Source: Megasphaera elsdenii DSM 20460 (lineage in GTDB: Bacteria > Bacillota > Negativicutes > Veillonellales > Megasphaeraceae). From it: a DNA stretch of 32,000 nt. The DNA lies in NCBI RefSeq assembly GCF_003010495.1, contig NZ_CP027570.1, positions 570,001 to 602,000 on the forward strand, in the 5' to 3' direction. The position numbers were made by a program, and so were the translations under genes. Below, piece after piece: positions 3,998-17,737 of this stretch. Every line of letters begins with the position of its first letter. Position 1 is the stretch's first letter. The notes beneath the pieces are model-generated. The model saw nothing but the letters and a program-made list of their open reading frames with translations, was not told the origin of the DNA and searched no databases.

Positions 3998-5407
3998 ATG
4001 AAAAAATTATGGTCACGTTTAGGAGTGCTGCTCCCGTGTCTGCTCATGGCAGCGCCGGCAGCCTTCGCTTCCGATCCGGGGACGATCGATACAGGCGATA
4101 CGGCCTGGGTCCTCATCAGCGCCGCCCTGGTATTCATCATGACACCGGGCCTGGGCTTCTTCTATGGCGGCATGGTCCGCAATAAGAACGTCTTGACGAC
4201 GATCATGCAGAGTTTCTTCATCGTCGCCATGATTTCCGTAGAATGGATCCTCATCGGCTACGCCATGACATTCGGCACAGATATTAATGGTTTCATCGGT
4301 TCTCTTGATAAAGTCGGCCTGGCCGGTGTCGGCATGTCCGTTCTGGAAAACGGGACCATTCCGGAAATGGCTTTCGTCGCTTTCCAGTGCATGTTCGCCG
4401 TCATTACTCCGGCCCTGATTACAGGGGCCTTTGCGGAACGCATGAAGTTCCACGCTTTCGTCGTCTTCATCCTGCTCTGGGCCATCTTCATTTACAACCC
4501 CATGGCACACTGGGTCTGGGGCGGCGGCTTCCTGGCTAAACTCGGCGCCCTGGACTTTGCCGGCGGCCTGGTCATCCACATCCTCTCCGGTGTCTCTGGC
4601 CTGACACTCTGCGTCCTCCTGGGCAAACGCTATGGCTATGGGAAAATCCCCATGGTTCCGCATAACCTGCCCATGACCGTCCTCGGTGCGGCTCTCCTCT
4701 GGTTCGGCTGGTTCGGTTTCAATGCCGGCAGTGCGCTCGGCGCCAACGCTCTGGCTGCCAGCGCCTTCATCGCTTCGCAGGCTGCCGCTGCGGCAGCTAC
4801 CGTCACCTGGGTTGCCGTCGAATGGATTGTCCAGGGTAAACCGACCATCCTCGGTGCCGCTTCGGGCTGCATCGCCGGATTAGTTGCCATCACACCGGCA
4901 GCTGGCTTCGTCGCTCCCCTTCCAGCCTTGATCATCGGCGCGATTGGCGGCGTCATCTGCTACTTCGCCGTCGCTGTCGTCAAAGCCAAACTCGGTTACG
5001 ACGATTCCCTCGACGCCTTCGGTATCCACGGCATCGGCGGTACCTGGGGTTCCATCGCTACCGGCATCTGGGCTACGACAGAAGTCAACCCGGCCGGTGC
5101 TGACGGCTTATTCTACGGCAGCTCCGACCTGCTCGTCGCTCAGATCATTTCGACCGTCGTCGCTTATGCTTTGGCTATTGTCGGCACATTCATCCTCTTC
5201 AAGATCATCAGCTTCTTCATGACTGTCCGCACCGATAAGAACGAAGAAATCACAGGTCTCGATATTGGCGAACACGGCGAACGGGGTTATAATTATGCTA
5301 TCATGTCCGGCAGCCCCTTCGGAGAAACGCCGACGACGCCCTTTGGCAATGCAGCTTTAGACAATGCCGCCGTCAACAGCGCAGGCATTAACGGTCGTAA
5401 CTTATAG
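3998..5407 (+). CDS. amtB: Ammonium transporter (Amt family)
   Basis: 469 aa with an N-terminal signal peptide MKKLWSRLGVLLPCLLMAAPAAFA. Amt signature blocks are DFAGGLVIHILSGVSGL, LWFGWFGFNAGS and DDSLDAFGIHGIGGTWGS. A P-II gene follows directly. Confidence 0.95.
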   Translation: MKKLWSRLGVLLPCLLMAAPAAFASDPGTIDTGDTAWVLISAALVFIMTPGLGFFYGGMVRNKNVLTTIMQSFFIVAMISVEWILIGYAMTFGTDINGFIGSLDKVGLAGVGMSVLENGTIPEMAFVAFQCMFAVITPALITGAFAERMKFHAFVVFILLWAIFIYNPMAHWVWGGGFLAKLGALDFAGGLVIHILSGVSGLTLCVLLGKRYGYGKIPMVPHNLPMTVLGAALLWFGWFGFNAGSALGANALAASAFIASQAAAAAATVTWVAVEWIVQGKPTILGAASGCIAGLVAITPAAGFVAPLPALIIGAIGGVICYFAVAVVKAKLGYDDSLDAFGIHGIGGTWGSIATGIWATTEVNPAGADGLFYGSSDLLVAQIISTVVAYALAIVGTFILFKIISFFMTVRTDKNEEITGLDIGEHGERGYNYAIMSGSPFGETPTTPFGNAALDNAAVNSAGINGRNL

Positions 5408-8015: not shown

Positions 8016-8062
8016 AAAAAGCTGCCGCATTAAGCTAAAAACACTTAATGCAGCAGCTTTTT
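8016..8062. terminator. Bidirectional terminator between the MFS gene (+) and aroK (-)
   Basis: AAAAA, then GCTGCCGCATTAAG (8021-8034) pairing with CTTAATGCAGCAGC (8044-8057) with one mismatch, then TTTTT. Confidence 0.8.
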
Positions 8063-8567
8063 AGTCTATCTCTTTTATGAGTTTTTCAAAATCATCAAGA
8101 ACCGCTTCCATTGGCTTATTATTGGGGATGCAGTAATCAGCGGCATTGCGGTAAAGGTCAATGCGTTCGTCGTAGAGGTCGTAGACTTTCTGTTTGCCGT
8201 CTTTCAGCAAAGGCCGTGTCGATACGTCGACGTCACTGACAATGTCATCAGGGGAACGGTCAAGAAAAAAGACCGTTCCGGTTTTCTTGAAGATGTCCAT
8301 GTTTTCCGAGCGCTTGACGACGCCGCCACCGCAGGCTACGACGATACCCGATTTATGGGCCAGGAACTGGCTGGCCCGGACTTCGGCGTCGCGGAAGCAG
8401 TCTTCACTGCTGGCGAAGAGTTCCGGAATGGTCTTGCCTTCCTGTTCGACAATGACATCATCGGCGTCGTAAAAATCACGGCCTAAGCGTTTCGCCAAAG
8501 CTTTCCCTAACGTACTCTTACCGCATCCGGGCATGCCGATGAGGATGATGTTCTGTTTATTATTCAT
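8061..8567 (-). CDS. aroK: Shikimate kinase
   Basis: The protein starts MNNKQNIILIGMPGCGKST (Walker A). ATG 8567 overlaps the aroE stop as ATGAATAA. I reject the upstream extension to 8600. Confidence 0.9.
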   Translation of the reverse strand: MNNKQNIILIGMPGCGKSTLGKALAKRLGRDFYDADDVIVEQEGKTIPELFASSEDCFRDAEVRASQFLAHKSGIVVACGGGVVKRSENMDIFKKTGTVFFLDRSPDDIVSDVDVSTRPLLKDGKQKVYDLYDERIDLYRNAADYCIPNNKPMEAVLDDFEKLIKEID

Positions 8568-9390
8568 AATAATGTTCCATCTCCTTGGCGATTTGTTCAA
8601 TCACAGACGAATCGATGGTCCGGCCCATCCAGATTTCTTCTGAGCCGATGGCCTGAGCGACGAGCATGTACATACCGTTTAGGGTCTTGGCGCCATGACG
8701 GCGGGCTGCCTGCAAAAGCGGTGTATTTTTCGGGTTATAAACGATATCGACGACAGCCGGGAAAGCGGCGATAATCCGTTCCGATACGGGACAGCCATTG
8801 ACATCTGGGAACATGCCGACAGGCGTACAGTTGACCAGGACGTCACCGCCTTGGGAGTGTTCCAAATCCTGGTAATCGATGGTGTCGGCGCCAATCCGTT
8901 GAATAAAGGCATCGAATTCCGTCTTCGAGTGAGGATGACGGGATACGACGGTAATCGACTGGGCCCCGGCATCCGATAAGTATTGGATGATGGCCCGAGC
9001 GGCGCCGCCGGAACCGAGGACGACACACTCCTTCGCCTTTACACCGATACCGGCATGGTCCAGGGAGCGGCCGAAGCCGCTGTAATCCGTATTATAACCG
9101 AAAATCCCATCGTCTGTGAAATGAAGTGTATTGACGGCACCGATGATGCGGGCTTCGCGGGAAATTTCCGTCAAGTATGGCATGACGTCGAGTTTATAGG
9201 GAATGGTGACATTCGCTCCTGTGTACCCTTCGTCGCGCAGGCGCTGAAGTTCATTGGGGATATCGTTGCGGTCCATTTCCAGGACGCCGTACTGATGCTG
9301 CCCTTCGACCTGTAAAATTCTGAACAGTTTTTCGTGGATGGCCGGGGAAGCCGTATGACCTAACTTAGCCCCGATGACGCCTAATTTCAT
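8560..9390 (-). CDS. aroE: Shikimate 5-dehydrogenase
   Basis: Motifs are GHTASPAIHE, NVTIPYK, GYNTD and the NADP-binding loop GSGGAARA. Confidence 0.92.
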   Translation of the reverse strand: MKLGVIGAKLGHTASPAIHEKLFRILQVEGQHQYGVLEMDRNDIPNELQRLRDEGYTGANVTIPYKLDVMPYLTEISREARIIGAVNTLHFTDDGIFGYNTDYSGFGRSLDHAGIGVKAKECVVLGSGGAARAIIQYLSDAGAQSITVVSRHPHSKTEFDAFIQRIGADTIDYQDLEHSQGGDVLVNCTPVGMFPDVNGCPVSERIIAAFPAVVDIVYNPKNTPLLQAARRHGAKTLNGMYMLVAQAIGSEEIWMGRTIDSSVIEQIAKEMEHYYE

Positions 9391-10243
9391 CTACATTCCC
9401 TCCTTGATCGGATACGTAATTCCCTAAGATTTTAAAATAATTGCAGTGTTCTGCCAAGTTTCGCAGGACCCGGGCTGTCGCCGGATTGCGCAGATTGCCC
9501 ATGACGTCGATGTGGAAAAAGTATTCAAAGGGCCTTCCCTTAAGGGGCCGCGATTCCAGGTGCGTCATGTTCATGCCGTTATAGAAGAAGTATCCCAAAA
9601 CGTGGTACAGAGCGCCTGGCCGGTGCTGTGTCGTCAGGACCAGGGTAATCTTATCGGCGTCCGGCGACTGTTCCATATCGGCGGCGATGATGAAGAACCG
9701 CGTGTAGTTCATGGTATTATCATTGATGTGTTCCACCAGGACATCGAGGCCGTACATATAGGCTGCCGTTTTGTTGGCAATGGCTGCGATATGGGGATCC
9801 CCCATTTTTTGAACCTCTTCGGCACTCTGGGAAGTGCTGAAATACGGGTGGAGCTGCCATTCGCTGTGATGCTTGAGGTAACTCCGGCACTGGTTCAGAC
9901 CCTGCGGATGAGAATACACTTCGCGGATATCTTCGAGCTTCGCCCCCGGCAAGGTCAGCAGGCAGTGTTCGACTTTGACGTATTTCTCACCGACGACGCA
10001 GCAGTCGTAGCGGTGGATGAGGTCGTATACGTCGGTAATGCCGCCAGTCGACGAATTTTCGATGGGCAGGACGCCGTAGCGGGCCTGCCGGGTGGCGACA
10101 GCCTGGACGACGTCTTCAAAATGCGAACCATACGTAGGCAAAATATTCTTGCCGGCAAAATAGGTCTTCATGGCTTCATATGTATAGGAGCCGGGTTGGC
10201 CGAAACAGGCGATGTTCAAGGGCATATCTTCAGAAGCATCCAT
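9365..10243 (-). CDS. pheA: Prephenate dehydratase with a C-terminal ACT domain and no chorismate mutase domain
   Basis: Motifs are IACFGQPGSYTYEA, PIENSSTGG and NYTRFFII, plus an ACT region with ESRP. ATG 10243 overlaps the aroC TAA as TAATG. The track start at 10252 is a GTG. Confidence 0.9.
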   Translation of the reverse strand: MDASEDMPLNIACFGQPGSYTYEAMKTYFAGKNILPTYGSHFEDVVQAVATRQARYGVLPIENSSTGGITDVYDLIHRYDCCVVGEKYVKVEHCLLTLPGAKLEDIREVYSHPQGLNQCRSYLKHHSEWQLHPYFSTSQSAEEVQKMGDPHIAAIANKTAAYMYGLDVLVEHINDNTMNYTRFFIIAADMEQSPDADKITLVLTTQHRPGALYHVLGYFFYNGMNMTHLESRPLKGRPFEYFFHIDVMGNLRNPATARVLRNLAEHCNYFKILGNYVSDQGGNVDEIRRHRG

Positions 10244-11334
10244 TACCAGCACCGCCCTTTCTCTGACAGGCAGACGTCGAGGATGGCCCAGGCCGCGGCC
10301 GCTTCGATGACGGGAATGGCCCGCTGGACGATACAGGGATCATGGCGGCCTTTGATGACGAGGTCGCAATTTTCCTTCGTATCCGTATCGATCGTTTCCT
10401 GTTTCTGGCTGATGGAAGCCGTCGGCTTGACGACCAGGCGGAAGATGATGGGCATGCCGTTGGTGATACCGCCATTGATGCCGCCGTTGTGATTGGTCCG
10501 GGTCTTGACGACATCGCCGTCATAATAAAAGTCATCATTGGCCTGGGAACCGCGGAGGTCTGCCAGGGCGAAGCCGTCGCCAAATTCGATGCCTTTCACA
10601 GCCGGGACGGAAAACATCATATGGCTGAGCTGGCTTTCGACGGAGTCGAAGAAGGGGTCGCCTATGCCGGCGGGAAGGCCGGTGATCATACATTCGATGA
10701 CGCCGCCGACGGAATCGAGGTCGTTCTTAGCGGCCAGGATTTTAGCTTCCATCGGTCCGGCCTGGGCCTTGTCGAGGACGGGCAGCGTTTCTTTTTTCAA
10801 AGCCTGCAAGGTTTCTGCTGTTTCCCCGACGGCATTGAAAGGCTTATCGGCGATGCCGGCCAGGCGCAGGATATGGGAGCCGACGGTAATGCCGTGGCGG
10901 GCCAGGATCTGGGAAGCCACGGCCCCGGCAAAGACCAGGGGCGCTGTCAGGCGGCCCGAGAAATGACCGCCGCCGCGGTAGTCATTGAACCCGCCGTAGC
11001 GCACCTTGCCGGAGTAGTCGGCATGGCCAGGCCGCATGATATGGCGCAGTTGGTCGTAATCCCGCGAGTGCTGGTCGCTGTTGCGGATGATGGCGCACAG
11101 GGGCGTCCCCGTCGTATAGCCGTTGAAAAAGCCGCTCTGGACTTCAAAGGCGTCCTTTTCGGCCCGGGCCGTCGACATCGGATTCTTCCCCGGTGCCCGC
11201 CGGGCCATCTCGGTCCGGACAGCATCCCAGTCGATGGCTTCGCCCGATGGCAGGCCATCGAGGACGGCACCGATAGAAAGGCCGTGGGATTCACCGAAAA
11301 TCGTCAGGCCAATTGTCTTTCCAAAGGTATTCAT
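10243..11334 (-). CDS. aroC: Chorismate synthase
   Basis: The N-terminus is FGKTIGLTIFGESHG. Further motifs are RPGHADYSG and RGGGHFSGR. Length is 363 aa. Confidence 0.95.
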   Translation of the reverse strand: MNTFGKTIGLTIFGESHGLSIGAVLDGLPSGEAIDWDAVRTEMARRAPGKNPMSTARAEKDAFEVQSGFFNGYTTGTPLCAIIRNSDQHSRDYDQLRHIMRPGHADYSGKVRYGGFNDYRGGGHFSGRLTAPLVFAGAVASQILARHGITVGSHILRLAGIADKPFNAVGETAETLQALKKETLPVLDKAQAGPMEAKILAAKNDLDSVGGVIECMITGLPAGIGDPFFDSVESQLSHMMFSVPAVKGIEFGDGFALADLRGSQANDDFYYDGDVVKTRTNHNGGINGGITNGMPIIFRLVVKPTASISQKQETIDTDTKENCDLVIKGRHDPCIVQRAIPVIEAAAAWAILDVCLSEKGRCW

Positions 11335-11335
11335 C

Positions 11336-12625
11336 TTATTCTTCCCCCTCCTTTTGGATCATGCCGCCTAAGGCCTGGAAATCCTGCCAGAATTCCGGAT
11401 ACGATTTGCGGACACATTCAGCACCTTCGATGCGCAACGGCTGGCTGCAGCGCTGGGATGCGACGGCCAGGGCCATGGCGATGCGGTGGTCATTCCAACC
11501 GCTAACCGTACCGCCAGTGAAACCGCCGACGCCATGAATGATAAGGCCTTCTGCTTCTTCTTCGATATCGCCGCCGATTTTATTGAGTTCTGTGGCCATG
11601 GCGTGCAGACGGTCACATTCTTTGAGCCGGACCCGGCCGGCATGGATAATGCGGGTAATGCCTTTGGCACAGGACGCCAGGACGGTCAGGACCGGAACCA
11701 AGTCCGGGCAGTCTTCGACGTCGATGACCCGTCCAGCCAATTCCGATGGGCTGGACGTCAATTCTGTCTTGCCTTCGACTTGGCCACCCATGTCGCGGAT
11801 GAGGGAGACAATGACTTCGTCACCCTGGGAAGACTGCGACCGCAGGCCCGTACAGCAGATGGCCCGGCCCAGACTGCCAGCAGAGAGCCAGAAAGCAGCT
11901 TGCGAATAATCGCCTTCGACGACGTAAGTCCCGGGCCGATAGTGCTGATTGCCAGGAATCCGGTAGAAGCCATCCTGTTCTTTCTCAATGACGATGCCGT
12001 GCTGGCGCAGACAGTCAAGGGTCATGTCGACATAGCTGGCCGATTCCAGCGGTGTCGTACTGCGCAGGACCGAGTCGCCATCGAGGAGGGGCAAGGTCAT
12101 GAGCAGGCCCGTAAAGAACTGGGAACTGACGTCGCCGGCCAGAGAGTACGTTCCAGGCTGTAAAGTCCCGGACACGGTCAGGGGCAGGGCGCCTTCTGTC
12201 GTTTCATAAGCCACGCCCTTTTCATCGAAGAGTTCATAATACGGTGTCAGCGGCCGTTTGGCCAGACGGCCCTGGCCGGAAAAAGTCACTTCATTGCCGC
12301 TGAAGATGGCCACGGGGATGAGGAAGCGCAACGTCGACCCCGATTCATTGGCACTGACTGCGATAGGCCCATCTTGTTTCTTCAGACCGCCTCTGACGCG
12401 GTAAGCCGCCCGGCCGGGATGAGACGACATGACCGGCGTAATATCTGCCCCCAAAGCCCGTAGAATGTCGCACGTCGCTTCAATGTCCTGGGACAAGGAA
12501 ATGTTGTCAACCAGGCTTTCTCCTTCTGCCAAGGCGGCGCAGATGAGGTCGCGGTGGCCGATGCTTTTGGAAGAGGGCGCTTCTACTGTCCCTTGCAAGG
12601 TATGTGGGGTAATAATGACATTCAT
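11336..12625 (-). CDS. aroA: 3-phosphoshikimate 1-carboxyvinyltransferase (EPSP synthase)
   Basis: 429 aa. Motifs are PSSKSIGHR, ESGSTLRFLIP and NDHRIAMALAVA. The ATG shares one base with the aroB stop. Confidence 0.95.
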   Translation of the reverse strand: MNVIITPHTLQGTVEAPSSKSIGHRDLICAALAEGESLVDNISLSQDIEATCDILRALGADITPVMSSHPGRAAYRVRGGLKKQDGPIAVSANESGSTLRFLIPVAIFSGNEVTFSGQGRLAKRPLTPYYELFDEKGVAYETTEGALPLTVSGTLQPGTYSLAGDVSSQFFTGLLMTLPLLDGDSVLRSTTPLESASYVDMTLDCLRQHGIVIEKEQDGFYRIPGNQHYRPGTYVVEGDYSQAAFWLSAGSLGRAICCTGLRSQSSQGDEVIVSLIRDMGGQVEGKTELTSSPSELAGRVIDVEDCPDLVPVLTVLASCAKGITRIIHAGRVRLKECDRLHAMATELNKIGGDIEEEAEGLIIHGVGGFTGGTVSGWNDHRIAMALAVASQRCSQPLRIEGAECVRKSYPEFWQDFQALGGMIQKEGEE

Positions 12626-13695
12626 TAAGCGTCCTTCTTTCGGATATATTTCGGCAGGTCTTCCGCAACCAGTGGCAACAGGCGGGCCTTGCCGATTTCT
12701 TCGATAATGACTAAAGTAATATGATTGCCACGCATCTTCTTATCATTGCTGATGTAAGGAATGAGGTCTTCTGCCGACGCATCGACATCGGTCGGCAAGC
12801 CGTACTGCTTGATAACCTTGCGCAGCCGTGCCGTCGTCCCGGCTTTCGTCAGCCCCATGGCTTCCGTGACGCCGGTCAGCATGGACATGCCGGCAGCGAC
12901 GCCTTCGCCGTGCGTATAGTGGCCGAAGCCATAACAGCCTTCGATGGCATGGCCGATAGTATGGCCGAAGTTCAGAATCATGCGTTCGCCCATATCGAAG
13001 ACATCGTGTTCAACAATATCGGCCTTGCTCTGACAGCAGCGTTCGATGATTTCTTCCCAATGATCAAAGATAGACTGGTCATCGAGTTTTTCCAGGAGTT
13101 CAAAGAGAGCCAAGTCGCGGATGCAGCCGTATTTGATGACTTCACCCATGCCGTCGTGGATGAAGCGCTTGGGAAGGGTCGATAACAACATCGGGTCAAT
13201 GAGGACCCCTTTAGGCTGATAGAAGTTGCCTGCCTGATTCTTGCCGCTAGGAAGGTCGATGGCGACTTTGCCGCCGACACTGCTGTCGACCTGGGAAATG
13301 ATGGTCGTCGGAATCTGGATGAAGGGAACGCCGCGCAAGAAAGTCGCTGCTGCGAAGCCGCCGAGATCGCCAGTGACACCGCCGCCGAAAGTCAAGATAC
13401 AATCGCTGCGGGTAATGCCGGCGTCAGAAAGCTGCTGATAGAGGTCGAGGAGGGTCGCTGCGCATTTATGTTCTTCCCCGGCCGGGAAAACCAGGCGGTG
13501 GACGCGGAAGCCAGCGCCGGTCAGGGCCGTTTCCAATCGCTGCCCGTAGAGAGCATCGACGTTCGAATCGGTAATGACGGCCAGGGTCCGCGATTTCGTC
13601 AGATTGCGGATATAATCGCCAGCCCGGTCGAGGAGGCCGTTTTCAATATGAATATCATAAGAATCTTTTCCTAACTCAACGTGAATGTGTTTCAT
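12625..13695 (-). CDS. aroB: 3-dehydroquinate synthase
   Basis: Motifs are GGGVTGDLGGFAAATFLRGVPFIQIPTT and NFGHTIGHAIE. It overlaps the tyrA 3' end by 20 nt. Confidence 0.93.
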   Translation of the reverse strand: MKHIHVELGKDSYDIHIENGLLDRAGDYIRNLTKSRTLAVITDSNVDALYGQRLETALTGAGFRVHRLVFPAGEEHKCAATLLDLYQQLSDAGITRSDCILTFGGGVTGDLGGFAAATFLRGVPFIQIPTTIISQVDSSVGGKVAIDLPSGKNQAGNFYQPKGVLIDPMLLSTLPKRFIHDGMGEVIKYGCIRDLALFELLEKLDDQSIFDHWEEIIERCCQSKADIVEHDVFDMGERMILNFGHTIGHAIEGCYGFGHYTHGEGVAAGMSMLTGVTEAMGLTKAGTTARLRKVIKQYGLPTDVDASAEDLIPYISNDKKMRGNHITLVIIEEIGKARLLPLVAEDLPKYIRKKDA

Positions 13696-14563
13696 GAACT
13701 AATTCCCTTCTCCGCATAGCGGCTTGCTGTAAAAAACGGGTCATTCCCTTCGTATCTTCTTCGGCGAGCATCGTCGAGAAAGATTGCAAGGCAGCGCTGA
13801 AGCGGTCTATTTCATATAAGAGGTTGTCTTTATTGGATAAGAACAGTTTCGTCCACAGCGGGGCGTTGATGTCGGCGACCCGTGTCCCGTCGCGGAAGCT
13901 GCCGGCTACAAAATACTTGGTCAGCGTATTCATGGATTCGCTGTTGACCAGGGCCGTCGCCAGGACGTGAGGCAGGCTGCTGGTATAGGCGATGAACCGG
14001 TCGTGGTCTTCAGGCGTCACCCGGACGACATGGGAGCAGCCCAAGGCCCTGGCCATGTTCTTCACAGCCAGGATATGTTCTTCGTCATTGCCTTCCATGG
14101 GGACGAGGATGTAATTGGCGCCGTTGAAGATATCGGCACTAGCCATGGCATATCCCCGACCTTCGCGGCCGGCCATAGGGTGACCCGGTACGAAATCGAC
14201 ACCTTCCGGCAGCAGGGCCGCAATGGCTGTCGCCGTATCACCTTTGATGCCGGCTACGTCCGTCAAGATTGTTCCCGGCGTGAAGAAGGCTTTATTCTCT
14301 GCCAGGAATCGTATCATCACATCGGCAGCCGTGCAGAAGATGACCAGATCTGCCTGTTTCAAGGCTTCCGTCCCTGCCGTATAGATATCATCGACCATGC
14401 CCTCCTGCTTGGCCTGCTGCAGGGCCTTTTCGTCAGGATCGACGGCGATGATATGGTCGACGCCGAGGCGCCGCAGGCCGCGGGCATAAGAGCCGCCGAT
14501 GAGCCCCAATCCGACGATAGCTACCGTCTGCTTCGTATTAAAACCACTAGCTTCCTTATCCAT
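13676..14563 (-). CDS. tyrA: Prephenate dehydrogenase
   Basis: ATG 14563 follows GGGGGAG. The Rossmann motif is VAIVGLGLIGGSYA and the catalytic region is PGHPMAG. I reject the upstream part of the 13676..14683 ORF, which overlaps aroF. Confidence 0.88.
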   Translation of the reverse strand: MDKEASGFNTKQTVAIVGLGLIGGSYARGLRRLGVDHIIAVDPDEKALQQAKQEGMVDDIYTAGTEALKQADLVIFCTAADVMIRFLAENKAFFTPGTILTDVAGIKGDTATAIAALLPEGVDFVPGHPMAGREGRGYAMASADIFNGANYILVPMEGNDEEHILAVKNMARALGCSHVVRVTPEDHDRFIAYTSSLPHVLATALVNSESMNTLTKYFVAGSFRDGTRVADINAPLWTKLFLSNKDNLLYEIDRFSAALQSFSTMLAEEDTKGMTRFLQQAAMRRRELVHETHSR

Positions 14564-14586
14564 GATAGTCTCCCCCTCTGTATCCC

Positions 14587-15609
14587 TTATATTTCCCGAC
14601 CGACGACAGGAGCCAGTTTGCGGAGCGAATCCATGAGGTCTGCGAACATAGCCGGCGTAATCGACTGTGCCCCATCGCACCAAGCTTTATCCGGGTTGTT
14701 GTGGACTTCGATCATCAAGCCGTCGGCACCGGCTGCTACAGCGGCTTTGGCCAGGTCGGCTACCATCCAGCGCTTGCCCGTAGCGTGGCTGGGATCGACG
14801 ACGATCGGCAGGTGGCTCTGGCGTTTGACGGCCAGGACGGCGCTCAAGTCGAGGGTGTTGCGGGTGTACGTTTCAAAAGTACGGATGCCCCGTTCGCAGA
14901 GGATGACGTTGTGGTTGCCTTCAGCCATGATGTATTCTGCCGACATGAGCCATTCTTCGATAGTCGCGCTCAGGCCCCGCTTGAGGAGGACCGGCTTGTG
15001 CGTCTTGCCGACGGCTTTGAGGAGGTCGAAGTTCTGCATGTTCCGGGCCCCGATCTGGATGATGTCGACGCCATCTTCGAGGAAGACCGGCAATTTATCG
15101 GCCGACATGATTTCCGTAATGACCGGGAGTTTAGCTTTGCGGCCGGCATCGCGGAGCATATCCAGGCCTTTATTGCCTAAGCCCTGGAAGGAGTACGGCG
15201 AAGTACGCGGCTTGAAGGCGCCGCCGCGAAGGATGTTGGCGCCGGCTTTGGCGACGTCACAGGCAACGCCTTCGATCTGATCCGGCGTTTCGATGGAGCA
15301 GGGACCGGCGATGACAGCCAGCTTCTTGCCGCCGATGGTGACGTCTCCATTGCCGATGGGAATGACCGAATCCTGGGGATGGAAAGCCCGGCTGGCCCGT
15401 TTGTACGGCACTTCGACGCGCATGACCTTGTCGACACATTCGTAACCCTGGATCTGTTCGACATCGATGACGTCCGTATTGCCGACGAGGCCCATGACGG
15501 TCTGACGGGCGCCTTTACTGATATCGACCTGGAGCCCCTTGGATTTAATGTGGTCAATTAACTGCTTCGCTTCTTCCTTCGGTGTGTTGGCTTTCAATAC
15601 AATAATCAT
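14587..15609 (-). CDS. aroF: 3-deoxy-7-phosphoheptulonate (DAHP) synthase, type I-beta, with an N-terminal ferredoxin-like/ACT-like regulatory domain
   Basis: The core motifs are IAGPCSIE, LRGGAFKPRTSPYSFQG and VDPSH. The first roughly 70 aa (MIIVLKANTPKEEAKQLIDHIKSKGLQVDISKG...) resemble the regulatory domain of Thermotoga-type DAHP synthases. There is no chorismate mutase domain. Confidence 0.92.
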   Translation of the reverse strand: MIIVLKANTPKEEAKQLIDHIKSKGLQVDISKGARQTVMGLVGNTDVIDVEQIQGYECVDKVMRVEVPYKRASRAFHPQDSVIPIGNGDVTIGGKKLAVIAGPCSIETPDQIEGVACDVAKAGANILRGGAFKPRTSPYSFQGLGNKGLDMLRDAGRKAKLPVITEIMSADKLPVFLEDGVDIIQIGARNMQNFDLLKAVGKTHKPVLLKRGLSATIEEWLMSAEYIMAEGNHNVILCERGIRTFETYTRNTLDLSAVLAVKRQSHLPIVVDPSHATGKRWMVADLAKAAVAAGADGLMIEVHNNPDKAWCDGAQSITPAMFADLMDSLRKLAPVVGREI

Positions 15610-15635
15610 AACTCGTTTTCCTCCATTTCAGTAAT

Positions 15636-15663
15636 AAAAAAAGCAGGCCCACATGAGCCTGCT
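15636..15663 (-). terminator. Intrinsic terminator 26 nt upstream of the aroF start codon (candidate attenuator)
   Basis: The minus-strand RNA is AGCAGGCUCAUGUGGGCCUGCU followed by U7, which is the plus-strand A run at 15636-15642. The stem is GC-rich, 8-10 bp. It lies between the leader ORF stop (15703) and aroF. Confidence 0.7.
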
Positions 15664-15702
15664 CCTAAGATTCTCAGTTATCGCCTTTTCCGCGCGTCTT
15701 CC

Positions 15703-15867
15703 TTAGGCGGCCGCAGCCGTCTTCAGAAAAGGTGGAAGTCTTCTCATGCTTACATCATCTTTATGGAATTTGTCGTAGCCAAAATAGCCAGCGCTAAAAT
15801 ACAGATAGCCCCAGCTAAAATAAGTAAAGACGTATTCAGTTACGTGATGTAAGAATGACGTATTCAT
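15703..15867 (-). CDS. 54-codon aromatic-rich leader ORF upstream of the aro operon (candidate leader peptide; alternatively a small membrane protein)
   Basis: SD AAGGAG (15879-15874) lies 6 nt before ATG 15867. The peptide is MNTSFLHHVTEYVFTYFSWGYLYFSAGYFGYDKFHKDDVSMRRLPPFLKTAAAA, with 7 Phe, 6 Tyr and 1 Trp. This is the 3' part of the track ORF 15703..16038. Confidence 0.45.
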   Translation of the reverse strand: MNTSFLHHVTEYVFTYFSWGYLYFSAGYFGYDKFHKDDVSMRRLPPFLKTAAAA

Positions 15868-15907
15868 AGGAATCTCCTTGTACAACTTTTTAAAATTCGT
15901 TGTCGTC

Positions 15908-15936
15908 ATTGTATACCTCAGGGAGAATATTGTCAA
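15908..15936 (-). promoter_or_regulatory. Sigma-A promoter driving the leader ORF and aro operon
   Basis: On the minus strand, TTGACA (15936-15931), a 17-nt spacer, then TACAAT (15913-15908). Confidence 0.65.
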
Positions 15937-15939
15937 GAC

Positions 15940-15978
15940 AAAAAAACAGGGATTCTCTGTATATATATGAGAATCCCC
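15940..15978 (-). terminator. Intrinsic terminator of the deacetylase operon
   Basis: On the minus strand, GGGATTCTC pairs with GAGAATCCC (9 bp) around an 11-nt loop, followed by TGTTTTTTT. Confidence 0.8.
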
Positions 15979-16039
15979 ATGGACAATCGTTTTACCAGTA
16001 AATATATTGTATACTATTTTCGCATATATCCCATGCATT

Positions 16040-16942
16040 TTACCAGGAGGGTGGAATCGCTGTCGTGACGACGCGGAACGAATAGCCTTGATCCTTCAGG
16101 AGATGGATGATGTCCGGCAGGGCATCGACGGTGGCACCATGACCATAGGCATCGTGCATGAGGATGACCAGGTGGCGATGGAGATAAGGCCGCAGTTGCA
16201 GCTGCTGCTTGATGTTTTCCACTTCTTTATCGGCCGTCTTGCCCGTCCCGTCGGCATCGCCAGTCAGAGCATTCCAGCCGACTTCGATGTAGCCGATATC
16301 GTTGATGGCCGTCCAGAAATCCTTGGTGAAGTGGCCTTCCGTACCGCCAGGAGCCCGGGAAATGATGGGCCGGACACCGAGTATCTTATAAATCTCTTCT
16401 TCCGTCTGCAAGAGTTCATCCGTATAGGCTTTGGGCGAAACGTATATTTTCTTATAATCATGCGTATACGAATGGACGCCGATGGCATTGCCGGACTGAT
16501 AGATTTTCTTGACCACATCGGGATAACGGACGACATTCTGGCCGGTCAGGAAAAAGGTAGCATGAATGTTTTCTTTTTTCAGGATGTCCAAAATGCGCGA
16601 CGTATTCTTATCGTTCGGGCCATCATCAAAGGTCAGATAGACGACCTTGTCGCCGTAATAATACTCCCGCGTCTTGCCATACGTCGTGGGCAGGCCTTTT
16701 TCCTGGCGCTGCCGGGTCGTATATTTATCATAGACAGGTTTATCATTATCGACAGGCGGCAAAGAAAAATCATCGCCGACAAAGGCCACATCGGGCTTGC
16801 CGGACAGGACCTGCGGAACCGGGATATGCCGGGATTCAGCCGCCGCCAGGACGCGGTCGCGGTCAAAGTTCAGGAACAGCCCCAGCGAAGCCAGGAAGAA
16901 CAGTAAGATACATCCCAAAAACAATCTGCCTTTTTGTTTCAT
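16040..16942 (-). CDS. Polysaccharide / peptidoglycan deacetylase (NodB homology domain) with an N-terminal signal-anchor
   Basis: The N-terminal hydrophobic segment is LFLGCILLFFLASLGLFL. NodB motifs are LTFDDGP and HSYTHD. The start is only 6 nt after the yqeC stop. Confidence 0.85.
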   Translation of the reverse strand: MKQKGRLFLGCILLFFLASLGLFLNFDRDRVLAAAESRHIPVPQVLSGKPDVAFVGDDFSLPPVDNDKPVYDKYTTRQRQEKGLPTTYGKTREYYYGDKVVYLTFDDGPNDKNTSRILDILKKENIHATFFLTGQNVVRYPDVVKKIYQSGNAIGVHSYTHDYKKIYVSPKAYTDELLQTEEEIYKILGVRPIISRAPGGTEGHFTKDFWTAINDIGYIEVGWNALTGDADGTGKTADKEVENIKQQLQLRPYLHRHLVILMHDAYGHGATVDALPDIIHLLKDQGYSFRVVTTAIPPSW

Positions 16943-16948
16943 TTTTGC

Positions 16949-17737
16949 TTACATCCGTTTCTTTTTGACATTACCATAGTGGATATACTGGCGTATCGTA
17001 CACGTTTCCCGATAGCCATCGGCCAGGACGCTGGCCGTCAGGTCGAAGTCTTCCAAATCGTCGAGAAGGGCTTCGGTCATGCGGTGCTGAACGGCATTAT
17101 AGCCCGTGCAGAAAAGGATCCGCGGGCAGCGCACGCCGCGGAACAAGCCGCGGGGATGCTTGATGAGCTTGGCCAGCATAGCCGGTGTAATGACAGCCCC
17201 GCAGGGACGGCCCATGATAGCCGCTGCCGTTTCGACGCCTTCGATTTTTTCATCGCTGATGACGTTGCCCAGCATCTGGAGGTTCAAGACACCGATGACA
17301 GTATCGCAGGAAGCCGGCAAGGGCACGTCGTCGGCCAAGGGCGCTTTAAGCCACTTATTGCCGGCTGCATCGCCTTCGATAAGGATATACCAGGCAGGAT
17401 GGCGCATCTTGATGTCATCGATGACCTTGGGCTGGAGCCCGATATAGCGGTCCTGGTCGTCGAGCCCGGCGAACCAGGCCGGGACGTGACCGGCAGCAAT
17501 GCGTTCAGCGCAGAATGATTCGCCTTTTTCCATGTCTTCCGTGCAGATGACGTCAAAGGGTTCGACATTGTCGACACGAGTGCTGTCCATCGGTACGATG
17601 CTGCTGACCATGATCGGCAGGTGACCGCCGTGACCATAGGTTCCAAGGCGTTCCAATACAGTCGTCTTGCCGCCGGCCCCTACAATAGCCGTAATACCCG
17701 GTTTCAGCATACGCCGCCAACGATTATCTTCAAACAT
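16949..17737 (-). CDS. yqeC: YqeC-family protein (putative selenium-dependent molybdenum hydroxylase accessory protein)
   Basis: It has the P-loop ITAIVGAGGKTTVLERLG, then IEGDAAGNKWLKAP and LIKHPRGLF blocks, laid out as in YqeC. SD AAGGAGG precedes ATG 17737. The family assignment is from memory, not from a search. Confidence 0.7.
   Translation of the reverse strand: MFEDNRWRRMLKPGITAIVGAGGKTTVLERLGTYGHGGHLPIMVSSIVPMDSTRVDNVEPFDVICTEDMEKGESFCAERIAAGHVPAWFAGLDDQDRYIGLQPKVIDDIKMRHPAWYILIEGDAAGNKWLKAPLADDVPLPASCDTVIGVLNLQMLGNVISDEKIEGVETAAAIMGRPCGAVITPAMLAKLIKHPRGLFRGVRCPRILFCTGYNAVQHRMTEALLDDLEDFDLTASVLADGYRETCTIRQYIHYGNVKKKRM

Follow-up and report, generated by a model that had tools for sequence, protein, structure and literature searches.

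The 32,000-nt stretch of Megasphaera elsdenii DSM 20460 analysed here (contig NZ_CP027570.1, positions 570,001 to 602,000; hereafter the window) carries on its minus strand a 54-codon open reading frame (ORF) rich in codons for phenylalanine, tyrosine and tryptophan. It is followed by an intrinsic terminator and by an operon for aromatic amino acid biosynthesis that starts with a gene for 3-deoxy-D-arabino-heptulosonate 7-phosphate (DAHP) synthase. With a probability of about 0.78, judged from sequence and its comparison, this aro leader is a ribosome-mediated transcription attenuator through which the charging of the Phe-, Tyr- and Trp-tRNAs determines how much transcription continues into the aro operon. 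The reading rests on the anatomy of the leader, its exclusive association with DAHP synthase genes, the selection on the ORF and its aromatic codons, and the covariation of two alternative RNA helices. An attenuator of the enterobacterial leader-peptide type had been proposed in an earlier note on this DNA (the original prediction), and the comparative evidence supports that proposal. It also supports the existence of an uncatalogued, widespread family of such attenuators, the mechanism class itself being classical. All coordinates are window positions, and the elements of the leader are read on the minus strand.

The aromatic leader ORF and its relatives

Codons 12–34 of the leader have the highest aromatic density of about 35,800 stop-free 23-codon segments in the six frames of the window, and all segments with at least ten aromatic codons fall in the leader ORF. 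The counts given in the original prediction, 14 aromatic codons among 54 and 12 among the 23 codons of the run, were confirmed, and this density is unique in the window. Relatives were scanned over the 350 nt upstream of the 80 best DAHP synthase loci, one genome per species, using stop-free 15-codon segments. At least eight aromatic codons in 15 occurred in the sense direction at 42 of the 80 loci, compared with 4 in antisense and 1.5 in dinucleotide shuffles; for at least nine, the figures were 30/80, 0/80 and 0.1/80. The aromatic run thus recurs upstream of the orthologous gene over a background near zero, and the rest of the peptide diverges, which is the pattern the original prediction had expected of a leader peptide. 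A chance ORF in a U-rich spacer beside an ordinary terminator, devoid of any regulatory role, would agree with the consensus scans for promoters and terminators, which run at background density here. This explanation is effectively refuted by the aromatic density, which is absent from the antisense and shuffled controls, and by the conservation of the configuration over hundreds of genomes.

An alignment of the leader peptide with its 18 relatives in the protein database reveals a nearly invariant aromatic core, EYVFTYFSWGYLYFSAGYF.YD.F, between variable ends. Identical leader peptides are present on human gut metagenome contigs. All metagenomic relatives (56/56) match the aro leader, and the DAHP synthase gene starts 64–139 nt (mostly 86–97 nt) downstream in all those of the 52 distinct extracted leaders that reach that far, 46 in number. 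An aromatic ORF precedes the orthologous DAHP synthase gene in other Veillonellaceae (SAYFAYFFSRGYFYAGFFGY), Acidaminococcaceae (NYVFSYSYSYYYGYGYFAW) and Clostridioides difficile (KLYSFYYFMFWGFYFSAGYFF). Other carriers are Pelosinus, many Clostridium species, Haloimpatiens, Oscillospiraceae and Treponema, and the carrier groups also span Sporomusaceae, Clostridiaceae, Peptostreptococcaceae and Trichococcus. Each of the aromatic-ORF loci listed has an ATG preceded by a Shine-Dalgarno (SD) sequence and a terminator ahead of the DAHP synthase start. Distant lineages carry short, textbook-like leaders (MQNLFAANFYYYYYFFTRKK, MSRNYFTAYFYFYFRS, MALCFGYAYGYYRYYRSGYFACP), in which the Tyr and Phe codons vary synonymously. 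A length of 54 codons, which had been considered long for a leader peptide, proved normal in this family (42–60 codons).

A profile built from 18 diverse peptides retrieved 203 proteins of 42–93 residues, none with a Pfam domain and all unnamed or annotated as "hypothetical protein". Among its divergent matches, the contexts examined, which include pairs from the same genome, all (8/8) place the ORF about 95–190 nt upstream of an FXD-type DAHP synthase gene; on the opposite side of these eight leaders lie unrelated and variable genes. Homologues at loci unrelated to aromatic biosynthesis, which would have spoken for a different role, were found neither among these nor among the metagenomic relatives, one paralogue being the exception described below. 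Genomes with two FXD-type DAHP synthase paralogues have one leader ORF ahead of each. In Crassaminicella thermophila CP042243 (L137/L138), one leader stands before DAHPS-trpEGDCFBA and the other before DAHPS-tyrA-aroB-aroA, DAHPS being the DAHP synthase gene; in Marinisporobacter balticus (L139/L140), two leader-DAHPS units lie in tandem. The idea that leaders before DAHPS-trp are Trp-rich and those before DAHPS-tyrA Phe/Tyr-rich was dropped, each paired leader having one Trp codon.

The sole different context is that of a second copy in a Megasphaera metagenome-assembled genome (NZ_CATWFF010000021.1; L002:704-880 within region L002:640-1383). This paralogue has the full attenuator anatomy: TTGACA-17-TACAAT, the ORF MKEMSQVLHEIAYVFTYFSWSSFFAGAGYFAYIQFHRQDNDMRRLFAAA, the CAUGAG element, and a terminator whose apex reads CUCAUG. 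Downstream of it lies a gene for a protein with a pair of ACT domains (PF19571), beside a convergent gene for a class I-alpha DAHP synthase. The context is plausibly still aromatic metabolism, and the ACT-domain-pair protein may be a regulator that binds aromatic amino acids.

Selection on translation was examined in 57 distinct loci with a conserved nucleotide core. The leader frame is open from −15 to +22 codons in 55 of them, the other two frames in 7 and 0, and an SD-preceded ATG lies 16–21 codons 5' of the Trp codon in 56 of the 57. Across the family, Phe and Tyr interchange with aromatic identity kept, and TAT/TAC and TTT/TTC vary. On this comparison, the leader ORF and its aromatic codons are under selection. 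As regards codon usage, the Phe codons of the leader prefer TTT (5:2) and the ten neighbouring genes (8061–17737, minus strand) favour TTC (77:33), and the non-aromatic codons of the core (AGC, GGC, GCU) all end in C or U. Leader codon choice might tune decoding speed; the counts are small.

The centre of the run, UGG-GGC-U[AU]U…UUU-AGC-GCU-GGC-UAU, is invariant at the nucleotide level from Megasphaera to AT-rich Clostridia (GGC 11/11, AGC 11/11, GCU 10/11) and encodes W-G-[FY]-[FY]-F-S-A-G-Y. From Megasphaera to C. difficile, this motif is conserved, non-aromatic residues included, and its reading frame is maintained, which is one reason to consider that the leader ORF encodes a small single-pass membrane protein, itself functional, the terminator being a leaky stop between transcription units. 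The peptide indeed has a charged N-terminus and a hydrophobic stretch of about 20 aromatic and small residues, followed by Lys/Asp-rich residues; in many members KK comes straight after the stretch, a positive flank typical of membrane anchors. A leader peptide acting in trans also has a precedent in peTrpL (PMC7298713). This explanation is nevertheless improbable. The third positions of the non-aromatic codons are invariant, which points to a constraint on RNA or codons, and at both ends of the ORF what is conserved is RNA pairing, not the peptide. In distant lineages, the same slot ahead of a terminator is filled by aromatic peptides of 16–23 residues or with Arg that cannot span a membrane. 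Moreover, the ORF keeps an exclusive partnership with DAHP synthase genes, its paralogues having been duplicated along with them, and matches neither Pfam, NCBIfam nor any other family.

Firmicutes are usually thought to control aromatic genes by T-boxes, TRAP or protein repressors. The absence of a T-box from the leader, which the original prediction had stated, was confirmed with the Rfam model RF00230; the same search does find T-boxes directly upstream of the orthologous DAHP synthase gene in three lineages that have no aromatic ORF (115–124 bits; L032:2704-2946, L036:2717-2964 and L040:2732-2965). Since the T-box occupies the same place in these ORF-less loci, two different sensors of tRNA charging fill one regulatory slot. 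The expectation that Firmicutes use T-boxes is correct in part, as these three loci show. The L036 locus has a second T-box (4110-4358) after the DAHP synthase gene.

Alternative helices and the proposed switch

Among 16 aligned Megasphaera-clade leaders, three blocks are invariant at the nucleotide level (the aromatic core, CAUGAG within the ORF, and the terminator including its loop) and the rest is free. The original prediction had found no convincing antiterminator. One is provided by the pairing of GCAUGAG, in region 2 of the leader, with CUCAUGU, at the apex of the terminator (region 3), a helix of 7 bp and −9.5 kcal/mol in the window that covaries throughout the family. At 27 of 81 loci from Clostridia and Negativicutes, the apex of the terminator has the sequence CUCAU(U/G). 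Its best upstream partner is (U)AAUGAG(U) at about codons 36–45, represented by CAUGAG in Megasphaera and by UGGUGAG in C. difficile.

The 2:3 helix was tested on 28 distinct, aligned pairs of region 2 and apex against 500 shuffles. Pairing was found in 87.7% of cells compared with 77.2 ± 1.6% after shuffling (0/500 reach the observed value), a percentage inflated by the placement of the region 2 windows by best-duplex search, which detracts from it as support and leaves the compensatory changes beside the anchor unaffected. Compensatory cells number 24, against 10.3 ± 2.3 in the shuffles (0/500), and all slid registers are 51% paired or less. Next to the invariant AUGAG:CUCAU, each of the 28 has a pair, be it A-U (16), C-G (9), G·U (2) or U-A (1). 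Depending on the lineage, the (C)UAAUGAG of region 2 encodes Leu-Met-Ser or Ser-Asn-Glu (window, L009, L024, L137–L140), which shows that it is conserved as RNA, not as peptide.

Region 2 can alternatively pair with approximately codons 2–9 (region 1), forming helix P1 (1:2), which reaches −14.9 kcal/mol in the window. Region 1 sequences differ widely between loci, yet they match their own region 2. In 16 loci, cognate P1 duplexes average −13.5 kcal/mol, non-cognate ones −7.95 and those with shuffled partners −6.8; the permutation p for this co-evolution is about 5e-5, and the cognate partner is the best one in 10 of the 16 loci. The leader is thus, as read from these pairings, a classical four-region layout with the alternatives 1:2, 2:3 and 3:4. 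The arrangement is unusual in that helix 1:2 closes a loop containing the aromatic codons, which are thus outside region 1.

A covarying P1, whose 3' strand is shared with the antiterminator, together with an invariant core that folds into a hairpin of its own (P2), also resembles an OFF riboswitch. A ligand or protein bound at the core could stabilise P1 and so favour the terminator, the ORF being secondary. Such an RNA would need neither the conserved ORF, with its frame open in 55/57 loci, nor an SD-ATG at constant spacing. The interchange of F and Y keeps aromatic identity rather than sequence, members that lack the core still carry aromatic ORFs, and there is no Rfam match, nor a TRAP-like triplet array as a protein-binding RNA might have. 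A riboswitch-like or protein-binding RNA is hence very unlikely. A TRAP-regulated leader was considered separately and rejected: TRAP needs 9–11 (G/U)AG triplets spaced by 2–3 nt, and only 9 scattered GAG/UAG triplets occur, irregularly, over 300 nt.

As an attenuator, the leader would operate as follows. Transcription would start from the strong promoter near 15901, and the 54-codon ORF would be translated as it is made. When aromatic amino acids are plentiful, the ribosome would pass region 2 toward the stop codon, leaving region 2 either covered or re-paired with region 1 in P1. The terminator (3:4) would then form, and transcription would end at the U7 tract; the outcome would be the same, termination, in the absence of translation. 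If any of the aromatic tRNAs is poorly charged, the lead ribosome would stall in codons 12–34. The stalled ribosome and those queued behind it, or a stall at about codon 34 alone, would prevent P1. The freed GCAUGAG could then pair with CUCAUGU of the nascent terminator, delaying nucleation of the hairpin, so that the polymerase reads through. The sign of the response, the part played by queued ribosomes, the timing and whatever P2 may do are inferred, and the detailed switching scheme is less certain than the attenuator reading as such.

As a kinetic proxy for the switch, the nascent transcript was folded up to the terminator loop with the ribosome masked. In C. difficile, L009 and L016, antiterminator occupancy is 0.7–0.9 as long as the ribosome has arrived at neither region 2 nor the stop codon, and falls to 0 at these sites. 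Where P1 is strong, as in the window and other such members, a lone ribosome leaves region 2 free only if placed at codons 1–9 or 34–35. Adding a second, queued ribosome brings occupancy in the window to 0.8–0.9 for stalls at codons 1–19; it is 0 for positions between codon 36 and the stop. In the members examined, the aromatic run begins at about codon 11–15, approximately one ribosome length from the AUG, and this distance fits queueing.

Several observations weigh against the attenuator reading or its switching scheme. In equilibrium folding with a sliding ribosome mask, the terminator has P = 0.996 at every ribosome position; a structure competing with the terminator, which the original prediction had demanded, exists and covaries, and it never wins at equilibrium. 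Applied to the trp leader of E. coli, the same protocol gives 0.99 throughout, also at the Trp codons. Because a proven attenuator fails this test, the equilibrium result was given no weight. In the window, single-footprint stalls at most aromatic codons (10–33) leave region 2 paired, and because a single footprint is insufficient, the model needs queueing or steric exclusion of P1, both presumed. Nor is region 2 of the window covered by a ribosome at the stop codon, which lies 12 codons further on. The antiterminator is short and reaches no further than the loop and the upper part of the 5' arm, so that GCAGG stays free as a toehold, and the C-G state of the 2:3 helix is restricted to one clade. 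Finally, simple attenuation does not call for the nucleotide-level invariance of the core.

The core forms the P2 hairpin, whose 5' strand is invariant; the 3' strand occurs in eight variants, and each of them (8/8) preserves 7 of 8 pairs. In the E. coli trp leader, the 1:2 hairpin is a pause site that synchronises ribosome and polymerase. By analogy, P2 and the following UAUUUU could be such a pause site. Pairing of the core with the terminator arms, considered by eye, was set aside, since the core stays constant across lineages whose lower terminator stems vary. It is also possible, though unlikely, that the core acts as an additional sensor or effector on top of the attenuator, either responding directly to an aromatic compound through the nascent peptide or the RNA, or giving the leader RNA or peptide a function in trans, for which rnTrpL/peTrpL of Sinorhizobium offers a model of how a terminated leader RNA or its peptide can act.

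The conserved non-aromatic W-G and S-A-G, shared across bacterial classes, would also suit a nascent arrest peptide of the TnaC/SpeFL kind, in which a free aromatic amino acid or pathway intermediate arrests translation at region 2 or at the stop codon, keeps the antiterminator from pairing and so enforces termination. A ribosome on region 2 does abolish the antiterminator in folding, and many Clostridium members stop 1–2 codons past AAUGAG, about 12–25 residues after the motif, a spacing that the geometry of TnaC resembles. The motif-to-stop distance, however, ranges from 11 to 47 codons over the family, which argues against a fixed arrest site. The simple leaders of distant lineages have no such motif, there is no arrest motif such as a conserved terminal Pro, and the third-position invariance would be left unaccounted for. 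Arrest by a free ligand therefore appears improbable.

Returning to the attenuator, a further helix had been suggested between the heptamer CCUAAGG, which contains the stop codon, and UCUUAGG. The complementarity is real (7 bp, one of them G·U; −9.9 kcal/mol when the flanks are counted); the principal antiterminator is, however, GCAUGAG:CUCAUGU. The heptamer pairing is absent from the minimum-energy folds and the spacer is unconserved within Megasphaera, and for these reasons it was kept only as a possible helper. It could be a lineage-specific helper that is disrupted by a terminating ribosome.

Leader anatomy and neighbouring genes

The elements of the leader and the genes that follow are listed in Table 1. 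Promoter, both SD sequences, ORF, terminator and the DAHP synthase start codon were all located on the minus strand where the original prediction had placed them. A consensus scan likewise found no promoter-like site between the terminator and the DAHP synthase ATG, in agreement with the claim that the operon is transcribed through the terminator, and Pfam bore out the eight aromatic genes, pheA and tyrA among them, which together serve the synthesis of precursors for all three aromatic amino acids.

Table 1. Features of the aro leader and operon (window positions).
Feature	Position	Strand	Remarks
Sigma-70-type promoter TTGACA-17-TACAAT	15908..15936	−	11/12 consensus matches
Shine-Dalgarno AAGGAG of leader ORF	15874..15879	−	6-nt spacer to ATG 15867
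Leader ORF, 54 codons + TAA (15705-15703)	15703..15867	−	peptide MNTSFLHHVTEYVFTYFSWGYLYFSAGYFGYDKFHKDDVSMRRLPPFLKTAAAA; F7, Y6, W1
Region 1, codons 3-8, GUCAUUCUUACAUCA, 5' strand of helix P1 (anti-antiterminator)	15845..15859	−	1:2 duplex (with 15757-15743), co-evolution with region 2
Aromatic codon run, codons 12-34, proposed sensing codons	15766..15834	−	codon counts, 12/23 Phe/Tyr/Trp
Core hairpin P2 (UAGCUGG-G-GCUA…UAGC-G-CUGGCUA), within aromatic run	15785..15817	−	−14.8 kcal/mol
Region 2, codons 37-42, UGAUGUAAGCAUGAG; pairs with region 1 (P1) or, via GCAUGAG 15749-15743, with terminator apex	15743..15757	−	
CCUAAGG around stop codon, complement of UCUUAGG 15664-15670	15701..15707	−	possible lineage-specific helper helix
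Region 3, CUCAUGU, top of terminator 5' arm + loop, partner of GCAUGAG	15651..15657	−	covariation
Intrinsic terminator, stem-loop ~15666-15639 + U7 15642-15636	15636..15666	−	−17.4 to −18 kcal/mol
Shine-Dalgarno GGAGG of DAHP synthase gene	15620..15624	−	sequence
DAHP synthase gene (FXD + DAHP_synth_1)	14587-15609	−	Pfam; ATG 15609, 26 nt past U-tract
Eight-gene operon: DAHPS, tyrA, aroB, aroA, aroC, pheA, aroE, aroK	8061..15609	−	Pfam

From the promoter, the transcription start is predicted near 15901. The same promoter and initial transcribed sequence are kept in Megasphaera relatives and in the L002 paralogue. A spacer of 37 nt separates the stop of the leader ORF from the terminator hairpin. 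Public gene calls and the ORF listing extend the leader ORF to in-frame upstream ATGs, giving versions of 68, 93 and 111 residues (P0001, P0002; 15703..16038). The start of the 68-residue version adjoins the −10 hexamer and that of the 111-residue version lies upstream of the promoter, so that both starts probably fall outside the transcript and the extended versions are probably artefacts. The in-frame ATG that gene callers take for the 68- and 93-residue versions lies upstream of the SD-preceded one, next to the −10 hexamer, and is unlikely to be transcribed; translation of the leader therefore most likely begins at ATG 15867.

The DAHP synthase at the head of the operon, whose FXD domain is ferredoxin-like, is nearest to proteins of Megasphaera and other Veillonellaceae (83–72% identity). 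The longest ORF for tyrA (13676-14683, minus strand) opens at a TTG and overlaps the end of the DAHP synthase gene by 97 nt; its true start is probably further downstream because the Pfam match begins only at residue 49–67. On the far side of the leader lie a polysaccharide deacetylase gene and a YqeC-family gene, both identified by Pfam.

Searches of the databases returned little else. No Rfam family reaches its threshold anywhere in the window, and nothing relevant was found around the leader at E up to 10. A hit to L20_leader at 15629-15767 (minus strand) scores 19.1 bits against a gathering threshold of 58.7 (E = 2.4), owes its score to the terminator hairpin and U-tract, and was rejected as chance. 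Eight loci of the family likewise gave no Rfam match at the gathering threshold, and profile searches of the leader peptide against Pfam and NCBIfam gave no match at E up to 10.

Comparison with known systems

If the attenuator reading is correct, one ribosome-read sensor of Phe, Tyr and Trp controls the entry into the shikimate pathway and much of the pathway itself in many Clostridia and Negativicutes, among them gut Megasphaera, many Clostridium species and the pathogen C. difficile. More than 200 unnamed "hypothetical proteins" would thereby acquire a function, and the family could be added to Rfam or NCBIfam. The layout, with its long ORF, sensing codons between regions 1 and 2, and invariant hairpin, would be a system for studying queueing and pausing in attenuation, and the leader is a candidate target or tool for aromatic amino acid production in anaerobes. 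For C. difficile 630, a premature-termination transcript in the 5' untranslated region of aroF has been listed without a mechanism (Fuchs et al., PMC8237595). The aroF leader of C. difficile (L012/L025) is a clear member of the family, and attenuation would supply the mechanism. Searches of the literature open to full-text search brought up no account of an aromatic leader peptide for Clostridia or Negativicutes; an earlier description may exist in subscription-only papers.

The E. coli leaders pheL-pheA, trpL-trpE and pheM-pheST share with the aro leader a short SD-preceded ORF, codons for the end products, a terminator, and the mutually exclusive helices 1:2, 2:3 and 3:4. The helix energies of the trp leader are similar in rank order to those of the aro leader. 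There is, however, no similarity in sequence or by covariance model (Rfam Phe_leader, Trp_leader). The E. coli leaders comprise 14–16 codons, whereas the family described here has 42–60 and mixes three amino acids. Its regulatory codons lie between regions 1 and 2 instead of inside region 1, its antiterminator covers the terminator apex only, it contains an invariant internal hairpin, and its hosts are Negativicutes and Clostridia.

The closest functional analogue is aroR-aroF of Corynebacterium glutamicum, an aromatic-codon leader ahead of a DAHP synthase-led operon, although the DAHP synthase of that operon is, we assume, not of the FXD type. The host is an actinobacterium and the leader is much shorter, and homology to the aro leader is not expected. 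As the work is summarised in a later article, a leader with Phe-Tyr-Phe controls the operon, and Phe limitation raises read-through (Neshat et al. 2014, via PMC11802643). For aroF of Acholeplasma, the candidate upstream ORF uORFC-13-1 has been described with Phe codons, a promoter, a ribosome-binding site, a terminator and an extra conserved stem, and attenuation has been proposed (Brewer et al. 2021, PMC8632094). It is reported only from Acholeplasma and environmental sequence (24 representatives).

Candidate leader-peptide attenuators for Leu (PMC5314783) and His (PMC9413887) occur sporadically in Clostridia, Bacilli and Streptococcus, C. difficile included. They concern other amino acids and are short leaders with tandem codons in narrow lineages, whereas the aro leader family is much broader. 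T-box leaders (RF00230), finally, likewise sense tRNA charging and switch between terminator and antiterminator in a 5' leader. The aro leader differs from them in having neither a T-box sequence nor a specifier-loop architecture, and the charging of tRNA would be sensed not by direct tRNA binding but by the translating ribosome.

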